Below, one piece after another: positions 2,233-29,329 of a DNA stretch of 58,004 bases. The notes beneath the pieces are model-generated. The model saw only the letters and a program-made list of their open reading frames with translations, made no database searches and was not told the origin of the DNA. The DNA is from a virus (Duplodnaviria > Caudoviricetes): IMG/VR virus record IMGVR_UViG_3300043636_000005, positions 1 to 58,004 of that record. One strand, written 5' to 3'. A program made the position numbers and the translations under genes. Position 1 is the first letter of the stretch, and every line of letters starts with the position of its first letter.

Positions 2233-3390
2233 TTAGGCTTCGGCCTTGGCCGAGAGATAGGCCGTGGACTTGCTGTCGCGCCGCGCCGCATAGGCGGTGT
2301 TGCGCTGGGTGAGGGGGTCGCTGTCGACGGTGGCGACACCCTGGCGGACGACGGCGGCGACGCCATCGCGTTGTTCGGTCTTCACCACGCCGGCGGTCAG
2401 CAGCCGGAAGGCGCCTTCCACCGAAGCGTCGGCGAACTTCGTCGCGTCGGCGGCGTCGGGGAGCTTCACGGCCACGGCCGCGCGCATGATCGCGCCATTG
2501 TCCATCCCGTCGCCGGTGAAGGCGTCGCCGAGCAAGGGCTTGGCGGCGGTGATCACGCCGGCCCGCACCGCGGCGGCCTTGGCCAGGGTCGCGGGGTTGG
2601 TGGCGTCGACCAGTTGCGCGCCGAGCGCGGCGATCTCGCCGTCCTTGGTGGCGACGGTGGCGGTCAGCGTGCCGACCTGGGCTTGGCTGGCCGCCAGGGT
2701 GGTGGCGGCGTCGGCCATCTGGCGTTGCAGCCGGGTGATCACAGCTTCGGCCGCGTCCGAGACGTCGGAAACAGGGATGCCGTCAACAAAAATGGTCTTC
2801 ACTTTGGTCTCCTGGGGTTGGGGGGTCTTGCCGTCACCGAAGACGAGGGCGGCGCCCCCGCGGGCTTGGTCACACAGCGCAAGGTGGTTGCACCGGATGT
2901 TGGTCATCTTGGCGTCGAAGCGCTGGCCGGCGTCGAGCTGGCCGTCTGGGACCACGCCGTCCTCAAGCACCAACTCGGAGCCATAGCCCCAGGACAGTTC
3001 GCGCTTGCCGGCCTTGAAGTCTGCAATGGCGCCGGCGTCCATCATCAGCAGCGGGACGCGGACGAAGTCGCCATCACGGGCGATATCGCTTCCGGCGTTG
3101 CCGATGGAGTGGTCTTTCCAGTTCTTGGACGAGACGCTCTCGGCCGGGTGGCCGTTGGTCATCGGCCGGTACGCCATGGAGGCCAGGGCGTCGGCGGCGA
3201 ACACCTCTTCCGGCGGCCGATAGACCCGGATGACGTCGGAGCCGGCCCGGTCGGTGAAGCCCAGGTCGCGGGCGGTGTAGAGCTGAATTCCGGTGCGCGC
3301 CGTGCGGGCGTTGGCCACGAGGTAGCCGTCCCGCGTCTCGCGGACGGACGCGGCGTCGATGGTCAGGGCGTCGGAGAGCTGAATGTGCAC
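2233..3390 (-). CDS. DUF2213 capsid maturation protease/scaffold
   Basis: DGYLVANARTARTGIQLY, VYRPPEEVF, PMTNGHP, RELSWGY and NHLALCDQARGG motifs, with a helical C-terminal scaffold. GTG start at 3390 is more likely than 3450. Confidence 0.85.
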   Translation of the reverse strand: MHIQLSDALTIDAASVRETRDGYLVANARTARTGIQLYTARDLGFTDRAGSDVIRVYRPPEEVFAADALASMAYRPMTNGHPAESVSSKNWKDHSIGNAGSDIARDGDFVRVPLLMMDAGAIADFKAGKRELSWGYGSELVLEDGVVPDGQLDAGQRFDAKMTNIRCNHLALCDQARGGAALVFGDGKTPQPQETKVKTIFVDGIPVSDVSDAAEAVITRLQRQMADAATTLAASQAQVGTLTATVATKDGEIAALGAQLVDATNPATLAKAAAVRAGVITAAKPLLGDAFTGDGMDNGAIMRAAVAVKLPDAADATKFADASVEGAFRLLTAGVVKTEQRDGVAAVVRQGVATVDSDPLTQRNTAYAARRDSKSTAYLSAKAEA

Positions 3391-3511
3391 GGCGAGAACT
3401 ACCCCTTGAGGTCTGTCCTGTGTGTGCCACACGATCTTGCGCCATGCCACCGCTTGGCTTTGCGACGGATGCGCCCGCCGCGAAGGGCGGTTGATATCTC
3501 GCCCTCAACGC

Positions 3512-3829
3512 GAAACGCCCCCAGGCGTGAACCGGGGGGCGTCTCCGGCCCGCCGGGGGCCGATACGGCGGAACTCTCATCCGCTTGCGCCGACAGGGTC
3601 TCACAAACCCGCCGGGGCTAGGGGCTTTCCACCCCTCTTGCAGGCTCGGGCCCATCCGCGGGACGACCGATATCCAGCGACCCCAGTTGCCGAGCGTGCG
3701 TTAGGCCACACCCCGGCAAAGGAACCGCCACCTGTCCGGCCTGGGTCGTCACCCTGGCTCGTGGCGCCCTTCGCATTCTGCGTCGGGCCCCCTGGAGCTT
3801 ATGGCCGAAGCCGCCCCCAGGGCGAAGCC
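3512..3829 (-). ncRNA. Candidate structured non-coding RNA
   Basis: No credible ORF. Many nested helices with UUCG, GAAA, GCAA and GUGA loops, an upstream TTGACG promoter and a downstream GC hairpin. Confidence 0.5.
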
Positions 3830-3859
3830 GTGATATCACCGCGTCCGGCTCGGCGTCAA
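3830..3859 (-). promoter_or_regulatory. sigma70-like promoter with GTGATATCAC at the -10 position
   Basis: Minus strand TTGACG-N14-GTGATATCAC. Confidence 0.6.
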
Positions 3860-4011
3860 GCGGCGTGCTGGCCGTGGCCGGTGGCGTCCTCGATCTCCAC
3901 GAAGCCGGGGGCTTGGCCGCCTTCGATGGTGTCGTTCCCCGGCGCCGGGTTGACGATCTCTTCGGCCGGGGCCTTCTCGGGCGCGTCGGCCGGGGGCTTG
4001 GGGTCGCTCAT
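3856..4011 (-). CDS. Small acidic hypothetical protein (51 aa)
   Basis: ATG overlaps the portal stop (TAATG). MSDPKPPADAPEKAPAEEIV...GHGQHAA. Not in the supplied ORF track. Confidence 0.55.
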   Translation of the reverse strand: MSDPKPPADAPEKAPAEEIVNPAPGNDTIEGGQAPGFVEIEDATGHGQHAA

Positions 4012-6014
4012 TAGACGATCTCCTCGAAAACTTCAGGGGCGAACAGGAAGCGCCCAACGTAGGGTTTGAGTTTCATCACGTCGAGTTCGTCGCTCTTGCG
4101 GAACGAGACGTGCGGCCGGTACTCGCGATGCGACGGGACCGCGCCGGCCTCGACAATCTGGTCGTAGCGCCATTGCAGTTCGGACGAGTTGAACTCTTGC
4201 ACGTCGCTGTCGCCGAGCTGTTCCACCACCCTCGGGCCGCCGGGCGGGATCAGCAGCCGGCCGTTGTCGGTGCGCGACCAGTCGGCCGGGACCTTCATCC
4301 AGTCGACCGGGATCAGCGAATACATCACGGTCACATGCAGGTCGCCGGCCGCCATGAGGTCCTCCACGCCCTGGCCGCGCCAATGGTTGAGGAACTCTTG
4401 CGGGTTGAGCAGCTTGCGCGAGACGTAGAGCGAGCGCGGGGTGGCGTCGCGCACCTCATCCAGGCTGATCGTCCGCAGGGTCAGGACCTCGTCGCCTACG
4501 GTGACCGTCCGCAGGCCGGTGATAGCTTCGGCGTCCAGCGCCGCCAGACCGTCCTTGGCGGCCTTCTGTGCGCCCCGGCGGGTGGCCCTGGCCGCAGACT
4601 GTCCTGGCTTGGACGGGGAAGCCCCCAGCGTCGGGGTGGCGGCCTTGGCGGTGGCCACGAGCGTGGCGTTCTTGGCCATCTCCACCGCCGGGAGCGGCGA
4701 GGTGCTGGCCGAGACGTTGTCGGCGAGGCCTGGGAAGGTCGCGCGCTCGTTCAGTTCGGACACCAGGGTCTTGGCGAGGGCGTCGTGCTGGATGAGCCCG
4801 GTGGTGGCGAGGATGTTGTAGGTGTCGGCGGTCAGGTTATCGAGTTCGGCCTGTTCCTGCGGCGTGGTCTCGGCCAGCGGGTTGAAGCTGAACGAGGCCT
4901 TGACGTCCTTCACGCCGGCCGAGGGCAACAGATAGGCGTCCATCCGCTCCAGTCGTCGGCGCAGTTCGGTGTCCTGGCGGCCCTTGACCATGGCCAGGAA
5001 GTTCTTCTCGTCGTGCTCGCCGGTGGCGTTCATGCCCTTAGGCGGCGCGCCCACGAGGCGGGTCAAGGGCATGTCGGCGGCGCCGGCGACCATCTGCAGA
5101 AAGGTCATGATCAGGTCCGGAAGGCCGCCGAAGCTCAGTTGCCGGGTTTCCCATTTCTCGCCGCTGCCCTCTGTGCCGTCGCCGCTGTCCAGGGTCACGG
5201 CGCGGAACTGCGAGCGCATCAGCTTGGCGACCTGGAGCCGCTTGGCCAAGTCCTTCTCGCCCTTGGCCGTGGACACCATGGAGGTCAGGCCGGGAATGCC
5301 GATGATATCAACCAGGGCCTCGGGGATCATCGCCGCCACCCCGCCCATGGCGGTCTCGGCGTCCATGATGGCGCTGTTGATCGCCTCCAGCTTCGGCAGA
5401 CCCCAGACCACGTCTTGCGCCAGCGTGCCGGTGCTGAGCTTAGTCGCCGGGACGCCGGGGAAGATCAGCACCCGCGAGGGGTGGACGTCCTGTTGGGTCC
5501 GGCCGGCGGCGGTGAGCTGGAACATCGTCGGCAAGCCGAAGCCCTCGGATTGCAAATCGCTGTCGAGTTCGTTGAAGGTCAGGTGATCGCGGGTGGTGAC
5601 ATAGAGGTACTTCAGGCCGCGCGGGCCGACCGTAGGCGGCGCCGGGGTGGCGGCGTCGCCATCGAGCCCCATGATGATCGCCGCCCCGCCCCGCAGCGCG
5701 CCCAGGCGCAACGCCTCATGGAACACCTCGCGGACGTTCAGCCGCTTCTCCTCGTCGCCGATGGCGTCGGCTTCCTTGCCCTCCAGGTTCCAGGCCCGCC
5801 AGTTCTTGGTCATCTCGGCAGGGATGACGTCGTGGATTTTGCGGACCAGCCAGGAGGACCGATAGGCGCTGTCGATCTCCACCGCGCTGAGTTGGCGCCC
5901 GGCGATGCTCCACCCGGAATAGGATCGCTTGTCGCGCTCCGTCCCCTGGCCGGTGACGACGTTCGCGAGCCCGTCTGTCGGGTTCACGGTGCGGGGGGAT
6001 GCGTCGTCGGCCAT
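4011..6014 (-). CDS. Portal protein (DUF1073 type) fused to a C-terminal 2H phosphoesterase (Acb1-like)
   Basis: AYRSSWLVRKIHDVIP and AGAADMPLTRLVGAPPKGMNATGEHD portal motifs. The last ~140 aa carry HVT (4329-4337) and HVS (4104-4112). Confidence 0.85.
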   Translation of the reverse strand: MADDASPRTVNPTDGLANVVTGQGTERDKRSYSGWSIAGRQLSAVEIDSAYRSSWLVRKIHDVIPAEMTKNWRAWNLEGKEADAIGDEEKRLNVREVFHEALRLGALRGGAAIIMGLDGDAATPAPPTVGPRGLKYLYVTTRDHLTFNELDSDLQSEGFGLPTMFQLTAAGRTQQDVHPSRVLIFPGVPATKLSTGTLAQDVVWGLPKLEAINSAIMDAETAMGGVAAMIPEALVDIIGIPGLTSMVSTAKGEKDLAKRLQVAKLMRSQFRAVTLDSGDGTEGSGEKWETRQLSFGGLPDLIMTFLQMVAGAADMPLTRLVGAPPKGMNATGEHDEKNFLAMVKGRQDTELRRRLERMDAYLLPSAGVKDVKASFSFNPLAETTPQEQAELDNLTADTYNILATTGLIQHDALAKTLVSELNERATFPGLADNVSASTSPLPAVEMAKNATLVATAKAATPTLGASPSKPGQSAARATRRGAQKAAKDGLAALDAEAITGLRTVTVGDEVLTLRTISLDEVRDATPRSLYVSRKLLNPQEFLNHWRGQGVEDLMAAGDLHVTVMYSLIPVDWMKVPADWSRTDNGRLLIPPGGPRVVEQLGDSDVQEFNSSELQWRYDQIVEAGAVPSHREYRPHVSFRKSDELDVMKLKPYVGRFLFAPEVFEEIV

Positions 6015-7608: not shown

Positions 7609-7908
7609 TTAGCGGCGCTTGCGCCATCCGCCGAAGCCGTTCGGCTCATAGTCCCGCTCGCGGAGCTGCATCAGCGTATCTCGGCGATACATCGTGCCGT
7701 CGTGCTCAATGTGCAGATCATCGACCGCGAAGACCGGCTCGGCGCCGTAGGGCCCCGACGTAACGCCGATGGGGAGGCCTAGCCGATAGGTAGTGAATTC
7801 GCCGCCGCGGATGGGATGGCCAACCGATGTGCAAATGGTGTCGCCGGCCTTCACGTCAGCGCCGCAGCTCAGCGCCTCGCGGCCTTCGAAGGTGAACCAA
7901 ACGGTCAT
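7609..7908 (-). CDS. Hypothetical protein
   Basis: GGAG RBS, downstream of the 8021 promoter and a leader hairpin. Confidence 0.55.
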   Translation of the reverse strand: MTVWFTFEGREALSCGADVKAGDTICTSVGHPIRGGEFTTYRLGLPIGVTSGPYGAEPVFAVDDLHIEHDGTMYRRDTLMQLRERDYEPNGFGGWRKRR

Positions 7909-8020: not shown

Positions 8021-8065
8021 GTGATATCACCCGAACCGGCAGGCGGCGTCAAGCGGCGATATCAC
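8021..8065 (-). promoter_or_regulatory. Promoter flanked by two GATATC palindromes
   Basis: Minus strand GTGATATCGC-cgc-TTGACG-N16-GTGATATCAC. Confidence 0.6.
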
Positions 8066-15777: not shown

Positions 15778-16305
15778 TTATTTGCTCAGCGCATCAGCCA
15801 GGGAGACGGCGCACGCCAGGAAAGTTCCGAACATCCACCCGCGCAGAAATTCCACAGTTCCGTTGATGTCGCCATGTTTTTTGATGGCGTCGCCGTTCCA
15901 TTTGGCCAGGGCCACCGCGACGCCGGCATAGATCACGAAGGGCACGGCGGCGACGAACGGCCAGCCATAGACCAGCACCGCCAGCACGCCGAACGCGCTC
16001 ATGATGAGGTGATGCAGCCACGTCGACTTCAGGTCGCGGCCGGTGGTGGTGTCGTCGGGGAAGCCGAAGGCCGCGCGGTAGACGCCCCAGGCGACGCCGA
16101 GCACGGCCACATGCCACCCGCCGAGCGCGTAGCAGAGCGCCAGGAGGGGCGCGGCGATGTAATAGATAGGTCGGCCGCCCAGCGGGCCGCCATGATCCTT
16201 GGTGAGCTTCTCCCATCCCAGCCCGCCGCCGATGAAGCGGTCAGCCAGCCCGAAGGCCGCGGCGTAGATGAGGGAGCGGATGGTGAGGAGGGCGAGTTCG
16301 GGCAT
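15778..16305 (-). CDS. Multi-pass membrane protein
   Basis: Several hydrophobic segments in 175 aa. GGAG RBS. Confidence 0.65.
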   Translation of the reverse strand: MPELALLTIRSLIYAAAFGLADRFIGGGLGWEKLTKDHGGPLGGRPIYYIAAPLLALCYALGGWHVAVLGVAWGVYRAAFGFPDDTTTGRDLKSTWLHHLIMSAFGVLAVLVYGWPFVAAVPFVIYAGVAVALAKWNGDAIKKHGDINGTVEFLRGWMFGTFLACAVSLADALSK

Positions 16306-16346
16306 GACGGGCTCCAGGTTGGGCCACCGCTATAACACCCGATCTC

Positions 16347-16387
16347 GTGATATCACCACTTGCAATCCACCGGCCTCGTGATATCAC
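16347..16387 (+). promoter_or_regulatory. Divergent promoter region with paired palindromes
   Basis: GTGATATCAC-cac-TTGCAA-N12-GTGATATCAC. Confidence 0.6.
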
Positions 16388-16413
16388 CGTGGACAGCAAG
16401 CCGGAGAACGCCA

Positions 16414-16617
16414 GTGCAAGTCCTGATCTTCCCCACCCAAGACCCCGAGGCCCGCAAGGCCGCCGGCGCCCTCCTGGCCAGCCTGGGCAACAGCCCCGAG
16501 CATGAAGCCCGGTTCGCCGCCCGCATGGAGCGCGAGCGCGCCGAGCTGGCCGCCACCGCCCACCTGTCGGGCGTTGAGCGCCTGGGCGCCCTCCTGGCCC
16601 TGCGGGGGCTGTCGTGA
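16414..16617 (+). CDS. Hypothetical protein
   Basis: GTG start with GGAG RBS. First of a small plus-strand operon. Confidence 0.5.
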   Translation: MQVLIFPTQDPEARKAAGALLASLGNSPEHEARFAARMERERAELAATAHLSGVERLGALLALRGLS

Positions 16618-22045: not shown

Positions 22046-25000
22046 CTAGTTGGTGGACCGCAGATAGATCGGCGTCACGTCGCCCGCATTGGTCAGTTCA
22101 TAAGCGATGGTTCCGGCCGTCGAGGTGTCGCCATAGGTCAGGGCGAGGGGGGCGACGTTGTTGGTGACCGACATCGCCGCGATGATCCCGAGGCTTTCCG
22201 CGGCGACGCCCATGGCGGGCTCCATCCGGTAGGACGACCACGCCCGAGCGGAGAAGCTCGGATGGGTCGGGGTCGCGTAGTTGGTGCAGACCGCCGCATC
22301 GGGGACGAAGGCCTCCAGGGGCTCGGGGATGATTTGGTTGGTCCCCCCGGAGCTGCCGCCGATCCCGCCTTGCAACATGATCCGCACGCCGGCCCCGGTG
22401 CTGTCGTCGTAGGCGCAGACCCGCAACAGGTGGCTGTCGGCCGGGTAGGAGTGACAGCCGATGGTCTTCAGCGACCGCGGCGCCGAGCCGTCCGCCATGT
22501 TGCTGTCGTTGGCGTCGAACATGAAGCCGGCGTTCTTCATCTGATAGACCGGCTGGCGGACATAGTTCTGGTCTGGGAACCACAGCCGCCCCGTCCCTGG
22601 CTCGACTTCCGTCATTTGCAGGGCGTCGAGGGAGTAGGTGGAGGCCATCGCCGTGGCCACCGCCGCGGGAATGCGGCTGTCGCCGCTGTTGGCGTGCCAG
22701 TAGATCAGCCCCAGGACGAAGTTGTGGACGTTGGCGAACACCTGGGTCCGTTGGGTCAGGTTGCCGCCGGCCGCCGACAGCGCCAGACCGGATTGCGGCA
22801 TGTCGCTGGAGAGGCCCGAGGGGCTGTTGTTGCAGTCGTAATAGTTGCCCAGGGCGTCGGTGTAGATCTGCCCGAAGCTCATCACGTCCATGATGGTGGG
22901 CGTGGTGCCGAGCGCCGCCGCCGCGGCATAGGCCCGCGCCGTGAACTCGTAGTTAGCGGCGGAGTAGTTCGGCGGAACATCGCGCACGGTCGGGGCCCAC
23001 CGGGTCTTAGCGGTGGTCATCGGCGTGCGGATGGTCATCGGCTGGACGGCAGGGTCAGCCGCGCCAACCGTCAGCGCCGGCGCCGCCACGACATTGGCGA
23101 TCAGCCCCGAGGCCGAAACCCCCGGCGTCACATAGGGGTCGACCGTCACCGACGTCGTGCCGGCGACGCCCGCGGAGGGCGAGCCGTACTTCGGGAGCAC
23201 GGACGGGAGCCGATAGCCCGCCGTGGCTTCCGAGCCCGTCCCGGCGGCGTCCATGCCGGTGCGGTAGGGGATGCTGAGCAAGGGCAGGGCCGTGCCGATA
23301 TAGTCCGCGCCGATCAGGAAGCCGCAATTGAAGGTGCGGCCGTCCGCGGTGGTGAAGCTCGTCACCTTGGTGCCGGTCTTGGTGACCGCGTTCATCCCGC
23401 CCGAAAGATAGATCGGAATGTCCTTGCCCGGCATGGCGCCGGTGGTCTTGGTCGGGTCGAGCATCCGCCGCGCAATGGCGTTCCAGTGCCGGCTTTCCGC
23501 ATCGACGGCGGTTTGCTGGTCGCTGGCGTTCTGAACGGTCGGATCGAAGTTGGTCCGGTTGCCGTACTTGTTGGCGTTAATCCAGGTGATCATGTCCTTG
23601 AAGATGCCGGACACGTAAACGTTGCCGGTGGCCTTGGCGTAGTTGATGTCCATCAGGTCGAGGCCCTGCGCCAAGAGCCCGCCGAGGCGCCAGAGGTGGG
23701 TTTGCCCCTCGTCCCCGACGATCACCACGGACAGCGCCGGGTTCTTCCGCTTCGCCGCGTAAGCCGCGATCACCGCCGGCATGGTCAGGCCGTAGACCAC
23801 GATATCAGCGGTGACCGTCGCGGGTTGATAGCCGGGTTCGAAGACGTTCGGCCGTCCCGAGGTCTGCGGGCCGTGGATGTCTTCGATGGCCGCGCCGATC
23901 TCCTCCGTCAGGGCGCGGGTTTTGCCAGCGCAGAGCAGGAAGCAAGACAGGCTTCGGGCCGATCCGGTGGAGTTGCCCGGCGCGTGGCCGATGCCGATTT
24001 CAACCGCCGAGGTGATCGCCGCCGAGACCGACGACACCGCCCCGTCGACCACCGGCCCGCGGTGCGAGGCCATGAAGGTGGCGCTCGTGGTGCGGCTGAC
24101 CGCACACCAGCCTTGGCCGTTGAAGTAGCCGACCGAAGGGGCCGTGACGATGGCCCCCATCATCCGGGTGCGCATCTGCACCGCGGTGTCGCAGCAGACG
24201 ATTTGCAAACCGTTGGCGCTGACATCCTGGGCGCCGCAGTCGACGTTGACCGCCGTCGCCCCCGTGGTGTTCGAATAGACGCCCATGAAGGCGCTGTTCG
24301 GGTCGATCTGCGACAGGTTGAAGCCGGTCCCGAGGTAGATCACCGACGAGAAGCCAGACCAGCCGGTCCCGGCCGTGAAAGTCACCGTCCCATATTCCGT
24401 CAGGACCGCCCCGGTGGGGTTGATCCAGTTGATTTTGGACTGCGCCTTGTTGACCGCGAACTTGCATTCCCAGAAGCCCGCGGGCTTGCCGGCGGCGAAG
24501 TCCGCATAGACCCCGGCGGCCTTCAGGCGCCGCACGAGGCGGTCCATGTGCCATTGGATGGCGGTCGAAGGCGCCGTGCCGCCATTTGCGGCGGCGTAGG
24601 CGGTGACCACCGCCTGGGTCTCGGCCTGGATAGCGAAGGTCGGGAGCACCGCCGACGGGGTGACGGTGAAGGTGACCGTGGTCGTGCGCGGGCTGTTCGG
24701 CGAGCCCACGAGGGTCTCGACAATCGGCCCCGAGAAGTTGCCGGCCGTCGCCGCGCCAGGGCCGACCAGGACTTGGGTCTGGTCGGAGCTGATCTTGTAG
24801 CGGGTCTCGCCGGTGGGGACCGATAGGGTGGACCCCGCCGTCTTGCCGCCGATGGTGCCGATGACGGTCCCTTCGGCGTCGCCCTGGGTGAAGGTGGCCG
24901 GCGAGACAGTCAGGCCCGACAGCGAAGCGACCGGCGGGGCGATGACGCGGATTTGCCGGCAACGCAGGAAGCTGCCGATGACCGACGCATCCGGGGCGTG

Positions 25001-28000
25001 CGGCGGGGTGGCGTATTCGTCGTTCCAGTGCGAGCGCAGGGCGTAGTTCAAGATCACGACCATCGGCACGTTCAGGTAGCCGTTGTTGGCGATCTTGCGC
25101 ATCGAAACGCCGTCCACGAACCACTCGACGGTCGTGGCGGTCCAGACGAGCGAATAGGTGTGGAACTCGGTCTTGTCCCAGCCCACCGGCATATCAACAA
25201 TCGAGGCGCCGGTGATCGACGGAGGCTCAGCGCCGGAGACCAGATAGCCCGGCGTATGGAATTCAAGCCGCCGGTCGTTGTCGGTGAGGATTTCGACAAT
25301 GTCGATTTCCTTGCTGGTCGCCTGATCATAGAGCCAGAAGGCCGGGTGGCCGCCGGGCTGGTAGACCGCCGGCATGGAGATTTCGGCTTCGAACGTCCCA
25401 TACTTCTGGGCGAAGCTCGGGAGCGAATTGATCATCCCCGAGCCGCGGGTGAACAGCGCGCCGTTGGCCACCACCGGCGGTGGCAATCCGCTGCCCAGAT
25501 CGTTCGGGTAGGCGCCTTGGAAATAGGTGTTGGTCCCGGTCAGCGCGCCGACAGTGATCCGCAGGCCTTCGCCAGGGACAATCGAGAGCGGCTGATAACC
25601 TTGCTTGTCCTGGGTGGAATAGAGCTGCCATTCCCACGGAAGCGAGCGGCTGGCCGGCAAGCCCCAGACGCCGTCCGAGGTGTTGAAGGTCGGCGCCGGG
25701 CGCCAGAAGCCGCCATGATTGGTCGGGCTGTAGAGGTCGAGGGTGGCGAACTTCTCTTGCAGGAGATAGCTCACGGTCCCAACCGCGTCGATCATCATCC
25801 GCTCGGCGTTGCGCACGTCCTGCGAGCGCACGGCGTCGGACGAGACCATGACTTGCGCAATGGCCCCGCTAAACCCGAAGACGCTGTCCCAGGTCGTGGC
25901 GCTGTTCTTGATCGCCCCGAGGGTCAGTTGGCCCAGGGTTTGCGAGGTCGAGGAGGCGCCGTTGCCCGAGGCCAGGAAGTAGCCGTCCTTGAAGAGGCTG
26001 ACCGTGGTCCCGTCGAACACGATGGTGACGACGTGCGGTTCATCGACGGTGAAGCCCGCCGCCGGCGAGGAGATGTTGGCCCCGCCGGTGCGCGAGACCC
26101 CGACGCCGTCATTGGCGGCGAAGAACACCTGGATGGGCGAGCCCGAGCCGGTCTGACCGATGGCGATGGGCCGCGAGCTGACGCCGGGCGCGCCGCGGGT
26201 CATCGCCAGAACCATGGTGAAGGGCTTGTTCACCCCGCCAAGTTCGGTCTGGAAGACGGATGACACCGCATCCAGGTGGGTCGGGGTGGCCTTGGTGAAC
26301 CCGCCCATGGGGACGCCGCCGACCAGCTTATAGACCGGCCGCGACGCCGAGACCGCGTTGGAGAGGTCCGCCGCGCCCATCTTGTCCTTGACCAGGGCGA
26401 TGGTCTGCGTGCCCGAGGTCGGGACCGCAGGCGTGGCGCCGGCGGTGTCGGAGAACACCTTGGTGGTGTCGGTGAAGTCCCACCAATGCTTGAGGTTGGA
26501 CCAGGACAGCGGCGTCCAGATGGTCGAGACGTTGATTGCGATGGCGAACGGCGTCGACTGGCCGGCGGCGTTGGTCGCGAAGCCCGTCACGTTGACGGTC
26601 TGGGTGAGGTTCGGCGCGGTGCCGGCGATGGTGAACGAGCGGTTCCCCGCGCCCATGGTGACGACTGCCCAGCTCTGGTCGGAGGCCACCGACGTATAGG
26701 TGTGGGTCAGGTCGCCGGAGTGGAAATCGGTATAGGCCACGGTCTGGTTGAGCGATCCGTTGGCGTTGACGCCGATCACGGACGGGAACGAGGCCTGTTT
26801 GACCGGGGCCACCTTGAAGGTCAGCCGCGCGCGCCGGCCAGCGCCGCCGGCGTTGAAGCTGCCGAGGAAGTAGACGCAGACCGTGCCGCCTTCGGTGGCC
26901 GGCGGGGTCCAAGAGACCGTCTTGGTGGCCGCGTTGTACGTCATGCCGCCGGGGAGCTTGGTGGTGGCGTTGCGGGTCAGGGCGCCGGGGCTGTCGTAGC
27001 CGTAGAAGCCGCCGACCACCTCCACGACGTCAGGGACCGAACCGCCGTTCCACACCGTGCCGGGCAGGACCCAAGGCGTGATGGGCGTCCCCGCCACGGC
27101 CGCGACCGTGCCGAGGTCGACGGTGGCGAGGTTGCGCGGCGAGCCTTGCGGCGACCACGAGCGGACCATGAGCAGCTTGGTGTCGGACGGCCATTCGATG
27201 GCGTTGAAGGCCCGCGCGGACATGCCGGACTGGCCGTAGGGGCCGGCTCCGGCGCCCAGGCGCAGGTCATGCGCGCCCTTGAAGCGGCCGATGTTGTTGA
27301 CCGCCTCGCCGCGCTTGGCGAGCACGCCCTGAACATCGAAGTCATCGTAGAATTCGATCTTCGTGGCGGTCTTCTTCGCCATGAACCAATAGGGGCGGTC
27401 GTCGCGGATATCGAGGAAGTAGGGGGTTTCCGAGCCCGCGCCGCCGCCGTCGACGCCGTTGATGATCGAGTTCACCCGGATGAAGGTCTGTCCGAGCGTG
27501 CGCGTCGGGGTGTCGGCGGGTTGGCCCTTGAAGATTTCGGGAACGTCCAGCTCGCCGCCGTCCGGCCAGAACTGCGCCGAGGTCCAGAGGAACGAAGACC
27601 AGTAGCCGACCAGCGATCCGGCCGGGGACTGGAACTTGCACTCCACGATGAAGTCGCCCTTGGCCGACAGCACATAGCCGGGCGCGGAGTAGATCATGCC
27701 GGCCAACAGCGAGGGCTTGCCGCCAGGGCAAAGCGAGAAGGTCGTCGGAAGCGTCGGGAGTAGAACGCTGTCAGGCTCGCGGATGTTGAAGTTGCAGCCG
27801 TTGCCGCCGCCGTTCGCGGTGATGGTGTCGAGGCCGAAGGCGGTCGGCGACTGGCTCCGCGCCCCGCGCCAATATTGGTCCATCCCCATCGACCAGCCGC
27901 CGGACGGGTCCAGGCCCATCCACGGCACATGAATGGGGCCGGTCTTCCAGGCCGCGTTGGGCGCCTCGTTCGGGTGCCAGCGGGGCGGGGCGGCGCTGAA

Positions 28001-29329
28001 GTCGGTCCCGAAGTCGAATTGGAAGCCCGCATAAAGGCCGGCGCCAACATCGTTGATCGAATAGCCCCCGATGGTCCCGGCGGCGGCGGCGACGTCGATG
28101 GTGAACGGCGCGCTGTCGATGAAGAACCCGGCGCTGTCCGTCGCCCGCATCTTGATCCCCGGATAGGAGCCCGCGGTGGTCGGGGTTCCGCCTAAGGTGT
28201 TGGTGCTCCGGGTGATGCCCGGCGGAAGCGCGGCGCTGTCCGGCGCGAGGCTCCAGGTGTAGCCGCCCGAGCCGCCGGCGGCGGCGAACGAGGAGCCCGC
28301 ATAGGCCGAGCCCTGGGTGGCCGAGGTCACCACGGTCGGGGTCATGCTGAGCGCGGCGGTGACGGTGATGTTGAAGGCCGCCAACAGGGCCGGCGTATTG
28401 ACCCCGTCCGAGGCCCGCAGGACGATGCCGTTATAAGCGCCGGGCGGGGCGGTGATGATCGAACCACCGAACAGGCCCGAGATGGCGTTGACTGCGAAGC
28501 CCGCCGGCGGCGTGCCGCTGGCCACGTCGTAGGTGTAGGGCCCGCCGGTCCCGCCGAAGGCCTCCAGGTCGCCAGTCGGCAGGACGCGGCCCTGGACGAC
28601 GGTCGTAGCCGGCGCCGGGGTCGAGGTGATGGACAGGGTGGAGGAGGCGGCGGCGACCTTCAGGGTGAAGGCCGGGAGCTTCTGGATGGCGCCGGTGATC
28701 TTGTCGCGGACCTGGAGGATGATCCCCGCATAGTCGCCCGGCGTGGTCGGCAGGCCGGAATAGAGGCCGGTATTGACGTCAATCGTCACGCCAGGGACCA
28801 AGCCGGCGAACACCGAATAGGCGAACTGACCGGAGCCGCCGGTGCCGACGATCTGGAAGCCGTCATAGTTCGCGCCCGCCTGGGCGGTGGTGACCGGCGA
28901 GCCGAAGACGCCCAACGCCTGGGCGGTCGGGGCCTGACCGGGGATGAAGATCGACCCCGCCGGCGCCGCAGCGGTCTTGGCGAGGTTGGCGTTAAAGCCC
29001 GTGATATTGCCCGTGCCGGCGAACCGGACGCGGAGCGATGCGCCTTCGCCGACGATAGCCCCCTGCGAGCCGTTGGCGGTCAGCGTCGCAACTGTGATCC
29101 ACGTTGCGCCGTCCGGGTCCAGCGCTTCCAGAACGGCTTGGCGGGTTCCCCAATTGCTGGCGCTGTAGGACAGAACATAGGCGCCGTTGAGGATGTTCGG
29201 CGTGATGGGCGACGTGGTCGACCCCGTGTAGGCCTTGACCAGCGGATAGGTTTTCCCCGCGTCATAGCTCGGTTGCGCGTCGACCATCTGGCCGGCGTTG
29301 TTCTGGGCGACGGGAGGGATGGCGGACAT
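22046..29329 (-). CDS. Giant multi-domain protein: Ig repeats, two GH16-like, LamG-like and FAD-oxidoreductase-like domains
   Basis: GGxGxYxY/W...LPxG...GTPT Ig repeats, GELDVPE and KEIDIVE GH16 motifs, HVVTIVFDGTTVSLFKDG LamG, and ADIVVYG...IGADYIG...RMEP. Confidence 0.7.
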   Translation of the reverse strand: MSAIPPVAQNNAGQMVDAQPSYDAGKTYPLVKAYTGSTTSPITPNILNGAYVLSYSASNWGTRQAVLEALDPDGATWITVATLTANGSQGAIVGEGASLRVRFAGTGNITGFNANLAKTAAAPAGSIFIPGQAPTAQALGVFGSPVTTAQAGANYDGFQIVGTGGSGQFAYSVFAGLVPGVTIDVNTGLYSGLPTTPGDYAGIILQVRDKITGAIQKLPAFTLKVAAASSTLSITSTPAPATTVVQGRVLPTGDLEAFGGTGGPYTYDVASGTPPAGFAVNAISGLFGGSIITAPPGAYNGIVLRASDGVNTPALLAAFNITVTAALSMTPTVVTSATQGSAYAGSSFAAAGGSGGYTWSLAPDSAALPPGITRSTNTLGGTPTTAGSYPGIKMRATDSAGFFIDSAPFTIDVAAAAGTIGGYSINDVGAGLYAGFQFDFGTDFSAAPPRWHPNEAPNAAWKTGPIHVPWMGLDPSGGWSMGMDQYWRGARSQSPTAFGLDTITANGGGNGCNFNIREPDSVLLPTLPTTFSLCPGGKPSLLAGMIYSAPGYVLSAKGDFIVECKFQSPAGSLVGYWSSFLWTSAQFWPDGGELDVPEIFKGQPADTPTRTLGQTFIRVNSIINGVDGGGAGSETPYFLDIRDDRPYWFMAKKTATKIEFYDDFDVQGVLAKRGEAVNNIGRFKGAHDLRLGAGAGPYGQSGMSARAFNAIEWPSDTKLLMVRSWSPQGSPRNLATVDLGTVAAVAGTPITPWVLPGTVWNGGSVPDVVEVVGGFYGYDSPGALTRNATTKLPGGMTYNAATKTVSWTPPATEGGTVCVYFLGSFNAGGAGRRARLTFKVAPVKQASFPSVIGVNANGSLNQTVAYTDFHSGDLTHTYTSVASDQSWAVVTMGAGNRSFTIAGTAPNLTQTVNVTGFATNAAGQSTPFAIAINVSTIWTPLSWSNLKHWWDFTDTTKVFSDTAGATPAVPTSGTQTIALVKDKMGAADLSNAVSASRPVYKLVGGVPMGGFTKATPTHLDAVSSVFQTELGGVNKPFTMVLAMTRGAPGVSSRPIAIGQTGSGSPIQVFFAANDGVGVSRTGGANISSPAAGFTVDEPHVVTIVFDGTTVSLFKDGYFLASGNGASSTSQTLGQLTLGAIKNSATTWDSVFGFSGAIAQVMVSSDAVRSQDVRNAERMMIDAVGTVSYLLQEKFATLDLYSPTNHGGFWRPAPTFNTSDGVWGLPASRSLPWEWQLYSTQDKQGYQPLSIVPGEGLRITVGALTGTNTYFQGAYPNDLGSGLPPPVVANGALFTRGSGMINSLPSFAQKYGTFEAEISMPAVYQPGGHPAFWLYDQATSKEIDIVEILTDNDRRLEFHTPGYLVSGAEPPSITGASIVDMPVGWDKTEFHTYSLVWTATTVEWFVDGVSMRKIANNGYLNVPMVVILNYALRSHWNDEYATPPHAPDASVIGSFLRCRQIRVIAPPVASLSGLTVSPATFTQGDAEGTVIGTIGGKTAGSTLSVPTGETRYKISSDQTQVLVGPGAATAGNFSGPIVETLVGSPNSPRTTTVTFTVTPSAVLPTFAIQAETQAVVTAYAAANGGTAPSTAIQWHMDRLVRRLKAAGVYADFAAGKPAGFWECKFAVNKAQSKINWINPTGAVLTEYGTVTFTAGTGWSGFSSVIYLGTGFNLSQIDPNSAFMGVYSNTTGATAVNVDCGAQDVSANGLQIVCCDTAVQMRTRMMGAIVTAPSVGYFNGQGWCAVSRTTSATFMASHRGPVVDGAVSSVSAAITSAVEIGIGHAPGNSTGSARSLSCFLLCAGKTRALTEEIGAAIEDIHGPQTSGRPNVFEPGYQPATVTADIVVYGLTMPAVIAAYAAKRKNPALSVVIVGDEGQTHLWRLGGLLAQGLDLMDINYAKATGNVYVSGIFKDMITWINANKYGNRTNFDPTVQNASDQQTAVDAESRHWNAIARRMLDPTKTTGAMPGKDIPIYLSGGMNAVTKTGTKVTSFTTADGRTFNCGFLIGADYIGTALPLLSIPYRTGMDAAGTGSEATAGYRLPSVLPKYGSPSAGVAGTTSVTVDPYVTPGVSASGLIANVVAAPALTVGAADPAVQPMTIRTPMTTAKTRWAPTVRDVPPNYSAANYEFTARAYAAAAALGTTPTIMDVMSFGQIYTDALGNYYDCNNSPSGLSSDMPQSGLALSAAGGNLTQRTQVFANVHNFVLGLIYWHANSGDSRIPAAVATAMASTYSLDALQMTEVEPGTGRLWFPDQNYVRQPVYQMKNAGFMFDANDSNMADGSAPRSLKTIGCHSYPADSHLLRVCAYDDSTGAGVRIMLQGGIGGSSGGTNQIIPEPLEAFVPDAAVCTNYATPTHPSFSARAWSSYRMEPAMGVAAESLGIIAAMSVTNNVAPLALTYGDTSTAGTIAYELTNAGDVTPIYLRSTN

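Follow-up and report, generated by a model that had tools for sequence, protein, structure and literature searches.

A possible attenuator leader in the gene-free stretch between the portal and head-protease genes of a phage

Introduction

The late leader of phage lambda consists of the promoter PR', a 194-nucleotide (nt) 6S RNA and the terminator tR', which is read through by Q; leaders of this type have a Q-binding element between -35 and -10 and a pause close to the promoter. Attenuators such as amino-acid operon leaders, T-boxes and riboswitch platforms also place a promoter-proximal untranslated RNA before genes, with a hairpin rich in guanine and cytosine (GC) and a U tail. The locus considered here lies in the complete 58,004-bp IMG/VR record IMGVR_UViG_3300043636_000005 (Duplodnaviria; Caudoviricetes), which is referred to as the window and on which all coordinates are based. 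It is a gene-free stretch of the minus strand ahead of the gene for a DUF2213 head maturation protease, on the side of the portal gene, and it carries a promoter motif, a hairpin-rich middle part and a terminator-like hairpin. Modelled RNA pairing makes it plausible, though short of probable, that the element is a cis-acting attenuator leader of the head-protease, cement and capsid genes.

Results

The predicted 5' end of the transcript can pair with the terminator strand

The element and its surroundings are composed of the following parts:

3855 to 3391, minus strand: gene-free stretch between a 51-aa open reading frame (ORF) and the head-protease gene
3859 to 3830, minus strand: putative promoter, with a -35 box TTGACG (3859-3854), an 18-nt spacer and TGn plus TATCAC within the palindrome GTGATATCAC (3839-3830)
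3823 to 3803, minus strand: segment A, GCCCUGGGGGCGGCUUCGGCC, the predicted 5' end of the transcript and candidate anti-terminator strand, with the transcription start site (TSS) placed near 3823 from the -10 box
3802 to 3546, minus strand: central GC-rich and hairpin-rich spacer, possibly a sensor domain, delimited by pair probabilities and by minimum-free-energy (MFE) and centroid structures
3545 to 3512, minus strand: terminator-like hairpin with 5' strand C, GAGACGCCCCCCGGU, and 3' strand D, GCCUGGGGGCGUUUC, followed by UUUC
3511 to 3391, minus strand: proximal leader of the head-protease gene, with a hairpin at 3506-3483 (GAGGGCG/CGCCCUU, loop GAUAUC)

In the 58 kb, both strands counted, there are just two copies of the 10-mer CCTGGGGGCG. 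Both lie inside the element, at 3821-3812 (positions +3 to +12 of the RNA) and at 3525-3516 (strand D). Since A and D contain the same 10-mer, either copy can pair with strand C of the terminator stem. Growing transcripts were folded from the start at 3823. In the nascent RNA reaching to 3546, the 5' end paired with 3560-3548. When the RNA reached to 3526, directly ahead of the second 10-mer, the MFE structure paired 3821-3803 with 3550-3532 in a helix of approx. 17 bp (pair probability P 0.69-1.0), so that strand C was occupied. Once the full hairpin was present, the terminator formed and the 5' end moved back (-172.8 versus -160.9 kcal/mol).

The duplex of A with the 5' strand of the terminator amounted to -35.5 to -39.8 kcal/mol, and the same strand was the target of the best duplex that the first 21 nt could form with the rest of the RNA (-39.8 kcal/mol). 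One out of 500 dinucleotide shuffles was as good (mean -26.2 ± 4.6), while none of 577 genome windows was (mean -22.8, minimum -35.3). The helix between A and C runs 8 bp past the repeated 10-mer; therefore, a simple target-site duplication is insufficient to explain it. By these models, the complementarity of A and C appears to be non-random and the sole non-random feature of the fold, and the repeat together with the alternative pairing would be the signature of an anti-terminator. An attenuator has an anti-terminator helix that shares a strand with the terminator and excludes it, and such a helix was found here, in silico only.

The promoter belongs to a family of palindromic sites

The pattern TTGAC-N15-19-TGATATC had three matches in the genome (3859, 8052 and 30399) with 0.00 expected. 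The sister promoter at 8052-8023 has a nearly identical -35/-10 context and shares GCCGCTTGACGCCG...GGTGATATCACG, so that the TTGACG promoter proposed on the minus strand in the first-pass annotation of this DNA holds as a motif. The 10-mer palindrome GTGATATCAC was found at 33 genome sites with at most one mismatch, its 11-mer form matched 44 times (0.27 expected) and its core GATATC is present in 75 copies (5-6 expected). The sites are often paired 31-33 nt apart and flank -35-like boxes upstream of genes:

8021/8056, 11197/11227, 12996/13023, 15725/15758, 16347/16378, 33903/33926 and 36467/36495, examples from the whole window: paired palindrome sites

In the promoter at 3859-3830, the palindrome may act as an extended -10 region (TGn-TATCAC) and is probably an operator as well. 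The paired palindromes look like the operator/promoter code of a phage regulator. Candidate regulator genes at the divergent region 15778-16617 belong to no Pfam or PHROG family, and a scan of IMG/VR for the paired-palindrome pattern returned 15 stretches, none of them related to this phage. Other members of the motif family lie close to their genes, with approx. 40-50 nt between sites 15725 and 16347 and the respective gene starts, and approx. 105 nt between the sister promoter at 8052 and the ORF start at 7908, a stretch that is unstructured (z-score -0.5). From the promoter at 3859-3830 to the next start codon it is approx. 430 nt, which is an unusual spacing for the family.

Among the structures of the region, the one predicted with the greatest certainty is the hairpin 3545-3512, with 14 bp, a mean pair probability of 0.99 and a free energy (dG) of -18.8. 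In style, it resembles the one behind the capsid gene (692-669, dG -21.4), which has a UUUUCC tail, and it lies 120 nt ahead of the head-protease gene, which has a Shine-Dalgarno sequence AAGGGG at approx. 3407-3402. By sequence inspection and a motif-pattern scan, no promoter of the phage's own type was found in 3511-3391. The abundant structural genes would therefore need read-through of the hairpin.

The stretch is non-coding

The GC content by codon position was flat from approx. 3850 to 3400, while the flanking genes showed third-position GC (GC3) values of 0.83-0.97. The longest run of low periodicity in the genome is 3376-3946 with 570 nt, followed by one of 435 nt. The region has a GC content of 69-71%, whereas other intergenic stretches of the genome have 57-63%. 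The stretch 3391-3855 is non-coding, unusual and of no known family.

Open frames do exist within it, and a small protein could in principle be encoded by a 73-aa ORF starting with GTG (3839-3618), a 52-aa ORF starting with ATG (3776-3618) or a 215-aa ORF on the plus strand (3422-4069). This is very improbable. None of the overlapping ORFs belongs to a Pfam family and the codon-position profile is flat. The 52-aa frame is the sole ATG ORF within the predicted transcript and has a GC3 of 0.65, compared to approx. 0.87 in real genes. When the 73-aa ORF was compared by HMMER with 1.84 billion proteins, no more than two weak matches appeared (E 1e-5 and 2.5e-4), each in four to five stretches of proteins of 459-503 aa; matches that are fragmented and to far longer proteins are typical of compositional bias. 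The start of this ORF also falls within the -10 box, ahead of the predicted TSS. In the plus-strand ORF, GC is higher at the second than at the first codon position across the overlap with the 51-aa gene; this ORF is an antisense shadow of that gene. The first-pass statement that no credible ORF overlaps the region is therefore confirmed.

The upstream boundary of the non-coding stretch is this small gene:

4011 to 3856, minus strand: 51-aa acidic ORF rich in proline and alanine, ending in ...GHGQHAA

Its start overlaps the stop codon of the portal gene (TAATG; translationally coupled) and its own TGA stop lies within the -35 box. It has no Pfam or PHROG family, but its GC at the three codon positions (0.75/0.52/0.90) is coding-like.

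Only local hairpins of the proposed fold recur

In the first-pass annotation, the region had been described as a stand-alone RNA with a large multibranch domain. All sequence strings quoted there are present on the minus strand at the places given. The helix that was to close the domain, GGGGCCCGACG...CGTATCGGCCCC, occurred in no MFE or centroid structure and in no helix with P > 0.6; GGGGCCC (3791-3785) paired locally with 3769-3763 rather than in this helix. The global fold and its long-range pairing shifted with the chosen 3' end, and only local hairpins recurred. Those with P > 0.9 are:

3791 to 3763, minus strand: hairpin enclosing CGCA-GAA-UGCG
3754 to 3743, minus strand: hairpin GGGU-GACG-ACCC
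3719 to 3687, minus strand: hairpin of 13 bp, extended by 3729-3721/3684-3676 at P 0.68
3636 to 3620, minus strand: hairpin
3618 to 3587, minus strand: hairpin
3584 to 3568, minus strand: hairpin
3562 to 3546, minus strand: hairpin

The folding z-score against shuffles was -2.18 for 3512-3859, -2.75 for 3512-3822 and -1.49 for the multibranch core. This stability is not exceptional: among 35 other 311-nt windows of the minus strand (mean z-score -0.70, standard deviation 1.41) three reached -2.75. The small tetraloop hairpins were at chance level. The UUCG and GNRA hairpins quoted have stems of only 2-3 bp. Counting hairpins of these types with a stem of at least 4 bp, the region has only one, and at least one was present in 37.6% of 1,152 genome windows. 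With its closing helix absent, its fold not robust and its z-score ordinary for the genome, the multibranch domain was not upheld. The label of a stand-alone RNA is unproven, as the non-coding stretch continues for 120 nt to the next gene.

The assignment to the minus strand stood up better. The stability was strand-specific, with z-scores of -2.75 and -3.21 on the minus strand compared to -0.07 and -0.02 on the plus strand. The plus-strand values near zero and the high GC content of the region favour selection at the RNA level on the minus strand.

No homolog of the element was found

Rfam 15 contains models for riboswitches, T-box, tmRNA, 6S, RNase P, phi29 pRNA, GOLLD/ROOL/HEARO and Mu-gpT-DE. 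None of its 4,227 models matched the window at gathering score, in agreement with the first-pass remark that the family was not recognised. On 3300-4100 (801 nt), four matches at noise level were obtained at E ≤ 10, the best being Scr4115 with 24.8 bits (gathering score 58, E = 0.8). There was also no match to an Rfam aptamer that would indicate a riboswitch.

Related loci were taken from IMG/VR, metagenomes and GTDB genomes, and further relatives from protein-aligned scans of viral contigs, in each case among the matches listed; the DNA encoding P0003-P0005, the nearest head-protease proteins (65-62% identical), was left out of the homolog searches. Against up to 283 related loci, blastn and nhmmer returned only GC-rich matches of 13-46 nt, and a distant-mode blastn against 50,697 phage records returned none. 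Five related virus records gave one match of 25 nt and no homolog. Approx. 1,200 alphaproteobacterial genomes were searched in total. Among 401 genomes of the class, 34 gave short matches (20-65 nt) that fell mostly on the terminator, and no homolog was found. For the orders to which G001 and G002 belong, 401 genomes each were searched, with no match in the former and a single one of 31 nt in the latter; two whole genomes held no useful homolog. Scans of IMG/VR and of GTDB genomes for exact 21-mers and 22-mers gave no matches each. A single-sequence covariance model of 3822-3676 matched only itself in 286 loci plus the window (2.03 Mb). The sole sequencing run with this DNA, which is its probable source, contained only the source contig with no variants. 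One study (PMC10690425) reports candidate viral RNAs of 29-151 nt, for which at least three IMG/VR matches were needed.

Genome setting and neighbouring genes

The genome has a GC content of 67%, a terminal repeat of 127 bp and most of its genes on the minus strand. It belongs to a soil phage, which a tail-sheath domain identifies as a myovirus. The nearest isolates by head protease are Rhizobium and Sinorhizobium phages with only approx. 40% identity. The best prophage relatives by this protein are in Sandarakinorhabdus (49%) and Caulobacter hibisci (44%); therefore, an alphaproteobacterial host is likely. The genes on both sides of the element are:

6044 to 4011, minus strand: portal protein fused to an Acb1 domain (Pfam PF06381, E 3.3e-87; PF23474, E 2.8e-19)
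3390 to 2233, minus strand: DUF2213 head maturation protease/scaffold (PF09979, E 1.2e-43; PHROG 530, E 7.6e-84), with GTG at 3390 taken as its start codon
2194 to 1715, minus strand: cement protein (PF22758)
1664 to 726, minus strand: major capsid protein (PF09950)

The Acb1 domain, a phosphodiesterase directed against the cyclic-oligonucleotide-based antiphage signalling system (CBASS), forms the C-terminus of the portal protein (residues 538-676, approx. 4433-4014; PF23474, E 2.8e-19). Alignments by tblastn extended to the end of the fusion in 41 of 74 related loci, and it looks widespread within the phage group. Elsewhere in the window, ARAGORN predicted a 91-nt tRNA-Pro(cgg) at 23158-23248 on the plus strand, antisense within a 2,427-aa ORF (22046-29329). 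It had no Rfam match at gathering score and is probably a false positive.

The junction of portal and protease genes in relatives

The gap between the portal and DUF2213 genes was shorter than 150 nt in 88 of 178 loci with both genes and held varied cargo in the other 90. From these comparisons, the junction appears to be a variable insertion slot. The closest relatives listed (L003, L004 and L083) have a gene for a Mu F-like protein or a BTLCP-type peptidase in the slot; in L004 and L083, the Mu F-like gene (PF04233) sits exactly between the portal and DUF2213 genes. A Mu F-like head-morphogenesis gene was found nowhere in the present genome by tblastn, although L004 and L083 have one. With the Mu F-like and BTLCP-type proteins of the relatives as queries, tblastn returned no match, either in the gap or in the rest of the window, and a tblastx search for a gene remnant gave only noise.

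These observations bear on a reading in which the stretch is a functionless spacer or decayed cargo within a 10-bp direct repeat, where the promoter would simply boost the capsid genes internally and the hairpins would follow from 70% GC. Such a scar would agree with a singleton that shows no detectable conservation and ordinary overall folding statistics, with the protein genes that the closest relatives listed carry in the slot, and with the 10-mers flanking approx. 296 nt as a target duplication would. The insert of one relative (L105, see below) is likewise flanked by a partial duplicate. However, neither residual codon periodicity nor translated similarity to the cargo genes of the relatives was found, nor terminal inverted repeats inside the direct repeats. 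The pairing of A and C 8 bp beyond the 10-mer, the strand-specific stability and a GC content above that of other intergenic DNA are also left without explanation. A scar is considered unlikely. A miniature inverted-repeat transposable element or other transposon was rejected for the lack of terminal inverted repeats inside the 10-bp repeats.

RNA genes were found in the slot of two relatives. L105 carries a permuted two-piece alphaproteobacterial transfer-messenger RNA (tmRNA) gene at 3121-3356 on the plus strand (RF04321, 65.8 bits, gathering score 47). Its tag ends in ...NDNDFQPSAIAA, the gene ends in a hairpin approx. 100 nt before DUF2213, and it was missed by ARAGORN. A partial duplicate of the DUF2213 leader (3088-3153) flanks the gene. 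In L156, the slot holds a tRNA-like gene at 2657-2727 on the plus strand (Rfam tRNA, 40.1 bits), which ARAGORN reports as 'tRNA-???' with a 2-nt anticodon.

The present element resembles the L105 tmRNA in slot, orientation and distance to DUF2213, and there is a superficial likeness, with GGGGGCC...CGACG close to the 5' end and a 3'-terminal hairpin whose loop is UUCACGC. Nevertheless, the idea that it is a tmRNA or tRNA-like gene, highly diverged or in decay, is largely refuted and hardly credible. No tmRNA or tRNA model matched the 801 nt even at E ≤ 10, with L105 and its 65.8 bits as a positive control for the tmRNA model. There is no ...CCA acceptor end and no tag frame of the AA-stop type in any of the three frames, and the T-arm-like hairpin and the would-be acceptor strand stand in the wrong order. 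By blastn, no significant similarity to L105 was found. ARAGORN found nothing at the element, but it had also missed the L105 gene.

A different RNA structure precedes the same gene in Caulobacter-type (pro)phages. The model R1, built in this analysis, describes a conserved 5' leader of DUF2213 found in five of 200 loci searched. It is 109 nt long, lies directly upstream of DUF2213 and has a mean identity of 89%:

3392 to 3500 in each of L008, L105 and L163: R1 leader
3399 to 3507 in L168: R1 leader
1504 to 1612 in L154: R1 leader

In its outer helix, CCUACCCUC pairs with the Shine-Dalgarno region and sequesters it, and a small hairpin contains three covarying pairs with compensatory changes. 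The R1 leader had no Rfam match in its five loci. It was not detectable at 3391-3515; the best match in the window had 15.8 bits and lay inside the portal gene, and a MAFFT alignment of the two leaders was not convincing. As five relatives have a different structured leader before DUF2213, the region upstream of this gene can be regarded as regulatory in the phage group. Together with the tmRNA and tRNA-like cargo, the R1 leader means that RNA cargo and cis-acting leaders are both precedented at this position.

The precedent for RNA cargo is also part of the case for the main alternative, an 'RNA moron', i.e. a stand-alone gene with promoter, RNA of approx. 310 nt and terminator, whose trans-acting non-coding RNA works on the host or its defence and affects the capsid genes only incidentally. 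The architecture of promoter, cargo and terminator without an ORF would suit it, as would a variable slot with cargo in 90 of 178 loci, including the tmRNA and the tRNA-like gene. A GC content above the genome average fits a structured RNA, and the terminated form is paired from +1 at its 5' end. It is compatible with an attenuator, as termination would also give the 310-nt RNA. On the other hand, no family match and no homolog appeared in any search, the fold was unstable across boundaries, the z-score was unexceptional and the tetraloops were not enriched. The palindrome that overlaps the -10 box suggests regulation with the lytic programme and not independent expression, and the match between the 5' end and the terminator strand is left unexplained. 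Overall, such a gene is judged rather unlikely, although it deserves more weight than a scar. By definition, a moron unites a promoter, a protein-coding cargo and a terminator between structural genes; here, promoter, hairpin and slot are present and the cargo is non-coding.

Discussion

The layout of a promoter, a 5' anti-terminator strand, a spacer, a terminator, no further promoter and then structural genes fits an attenuator or leader best. Among the functions suggested in the first-pass annotation, the evidence points to the capsid-operon attenuator, as A and C pair beyond chance; a ribozyme or a packaging RNA drew support from none of the analyses.

In the scheme proposed here, we infer the TSS, termination and read-through, any regulator and the function of the middle domain. 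Transcription would start at approx. 3823 from a sigma-70-type promoter that overlaps an operator (3859-3830). Segment A, the first 21 nt, could then pair with segment C (3550-3532) approx. 275 nt downstream. Alternatively, C would pair with D (3526-3512) and give the terminator-like hairpin followed by UUUC. If the helix of A and C lasted while D is made, the polymerase would read on into the genes for protease, cement protein and capsid. With A sequestered in its local hairpin or on the neighbouring C-run at 3560-3548, C and D would pair and a terminated RNA of approx. 310 nt would be released. The hairpin-rich middle of approx. 250 nt may be a spacer or the binding site of a deciding factor. 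A bolder version, which is doubtful, sees in these approx. 250 nt between 5' end and terminator a sensor domain that times head-gene transcription by strand exchange, with a 310-nt product that perhaps acts in trans; this would be a new kind of phage regulatory RNA.

Several points weigh against an attenuator. The test of the pairing between A and C was devised post hoc, after the repeat had been seen, and on a predicted TSS, so that its support is suggestive but falls short of proof. In 20 out of 150 shuffles and 22 out of 175 genome windows, the 5' end also paired with the 3' part; as closure of this kind is common (approx. 13% of controls), it was dropped as evidence. As mentioned above, the folding z-score is reached elsewhere in the genome. 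No homolog was found, so that neither covariation nor conservation lends it support. The terminator state is lower in energy by 12 kcal/mol, and read-through would therefore have to be kinetic or aided by a factor. The hairpin itself, which had been called terminator-like, has the strong stem expected but a U-tract of just UUUC; a strict scan (at least 5 T in 8) did not recognise a terminator, and a strict consensus scan called neither promoter nor terminator at the element. An attenuator with a spacer of 250 nt is unusual, and transcripts of the portal operon also traverse the element. Finally, the two copies of the 10-mer could be the scar of an insertion and not a regulatory design. Readings other than those weighed in this text are left a small share.

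If the attenuator were true, RNA would gate the transcription of capsid genes in a myovirus of soil alphaproteobacteria, through pairing of the extreme 5' end of the transcript with a distant terminator. No described case of such a layout before phage head genes was found in the literature searched. It would also add to the pattern of the portal/head-protease junction as a landing site for cargo, RNA genes included. The element is a single-genome orphan, and its value is that of a testable hypothesis and not yet of a new RNA class.

The known systems differ in how closely they resemble the element. The R1 leader is likewise untranslated, structured and located immediately ahead of DUF2213, but it has only approx. 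109 nt, hides the Shine-Dalgarno sequence and is not detectable in the window. Like phage morons and RNA cargo, the element is inserted among structural genes, here at the portal/head-protease junction, and brings a promoter and a terminal hairpin of its own; in contrast to them, it has no ORF and no RNA family, and its promoter bears the operator-like palindrome of the phage.

The attenuators named at the outset share the promoter-proximal untranslated RNA and the GC-rich hairpin with U tail before genes. In the present element, too, the 3' strand of the terminator recurs in a segment further upstream, which is able to pair with the 5' strand of the stem. However, there is neither a leader peptide nor any known aptamer or T-box, and the U-tract is short. 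The anti-terminator strand sits at the extreme 5' end, with approx. 275 nt and a large hairpin-rich domain between it and the terminator, and the targets are phage head genes. The lambda late leader is similar in that a promoter precedes late structural genes and a short terminated RNA results unless there is read-through. It differs in that the portal gene of the present phage lies upstream of the element, and the alternative RNA pairing predicted here suggests an RNA-based and not a Q-type mechanism.

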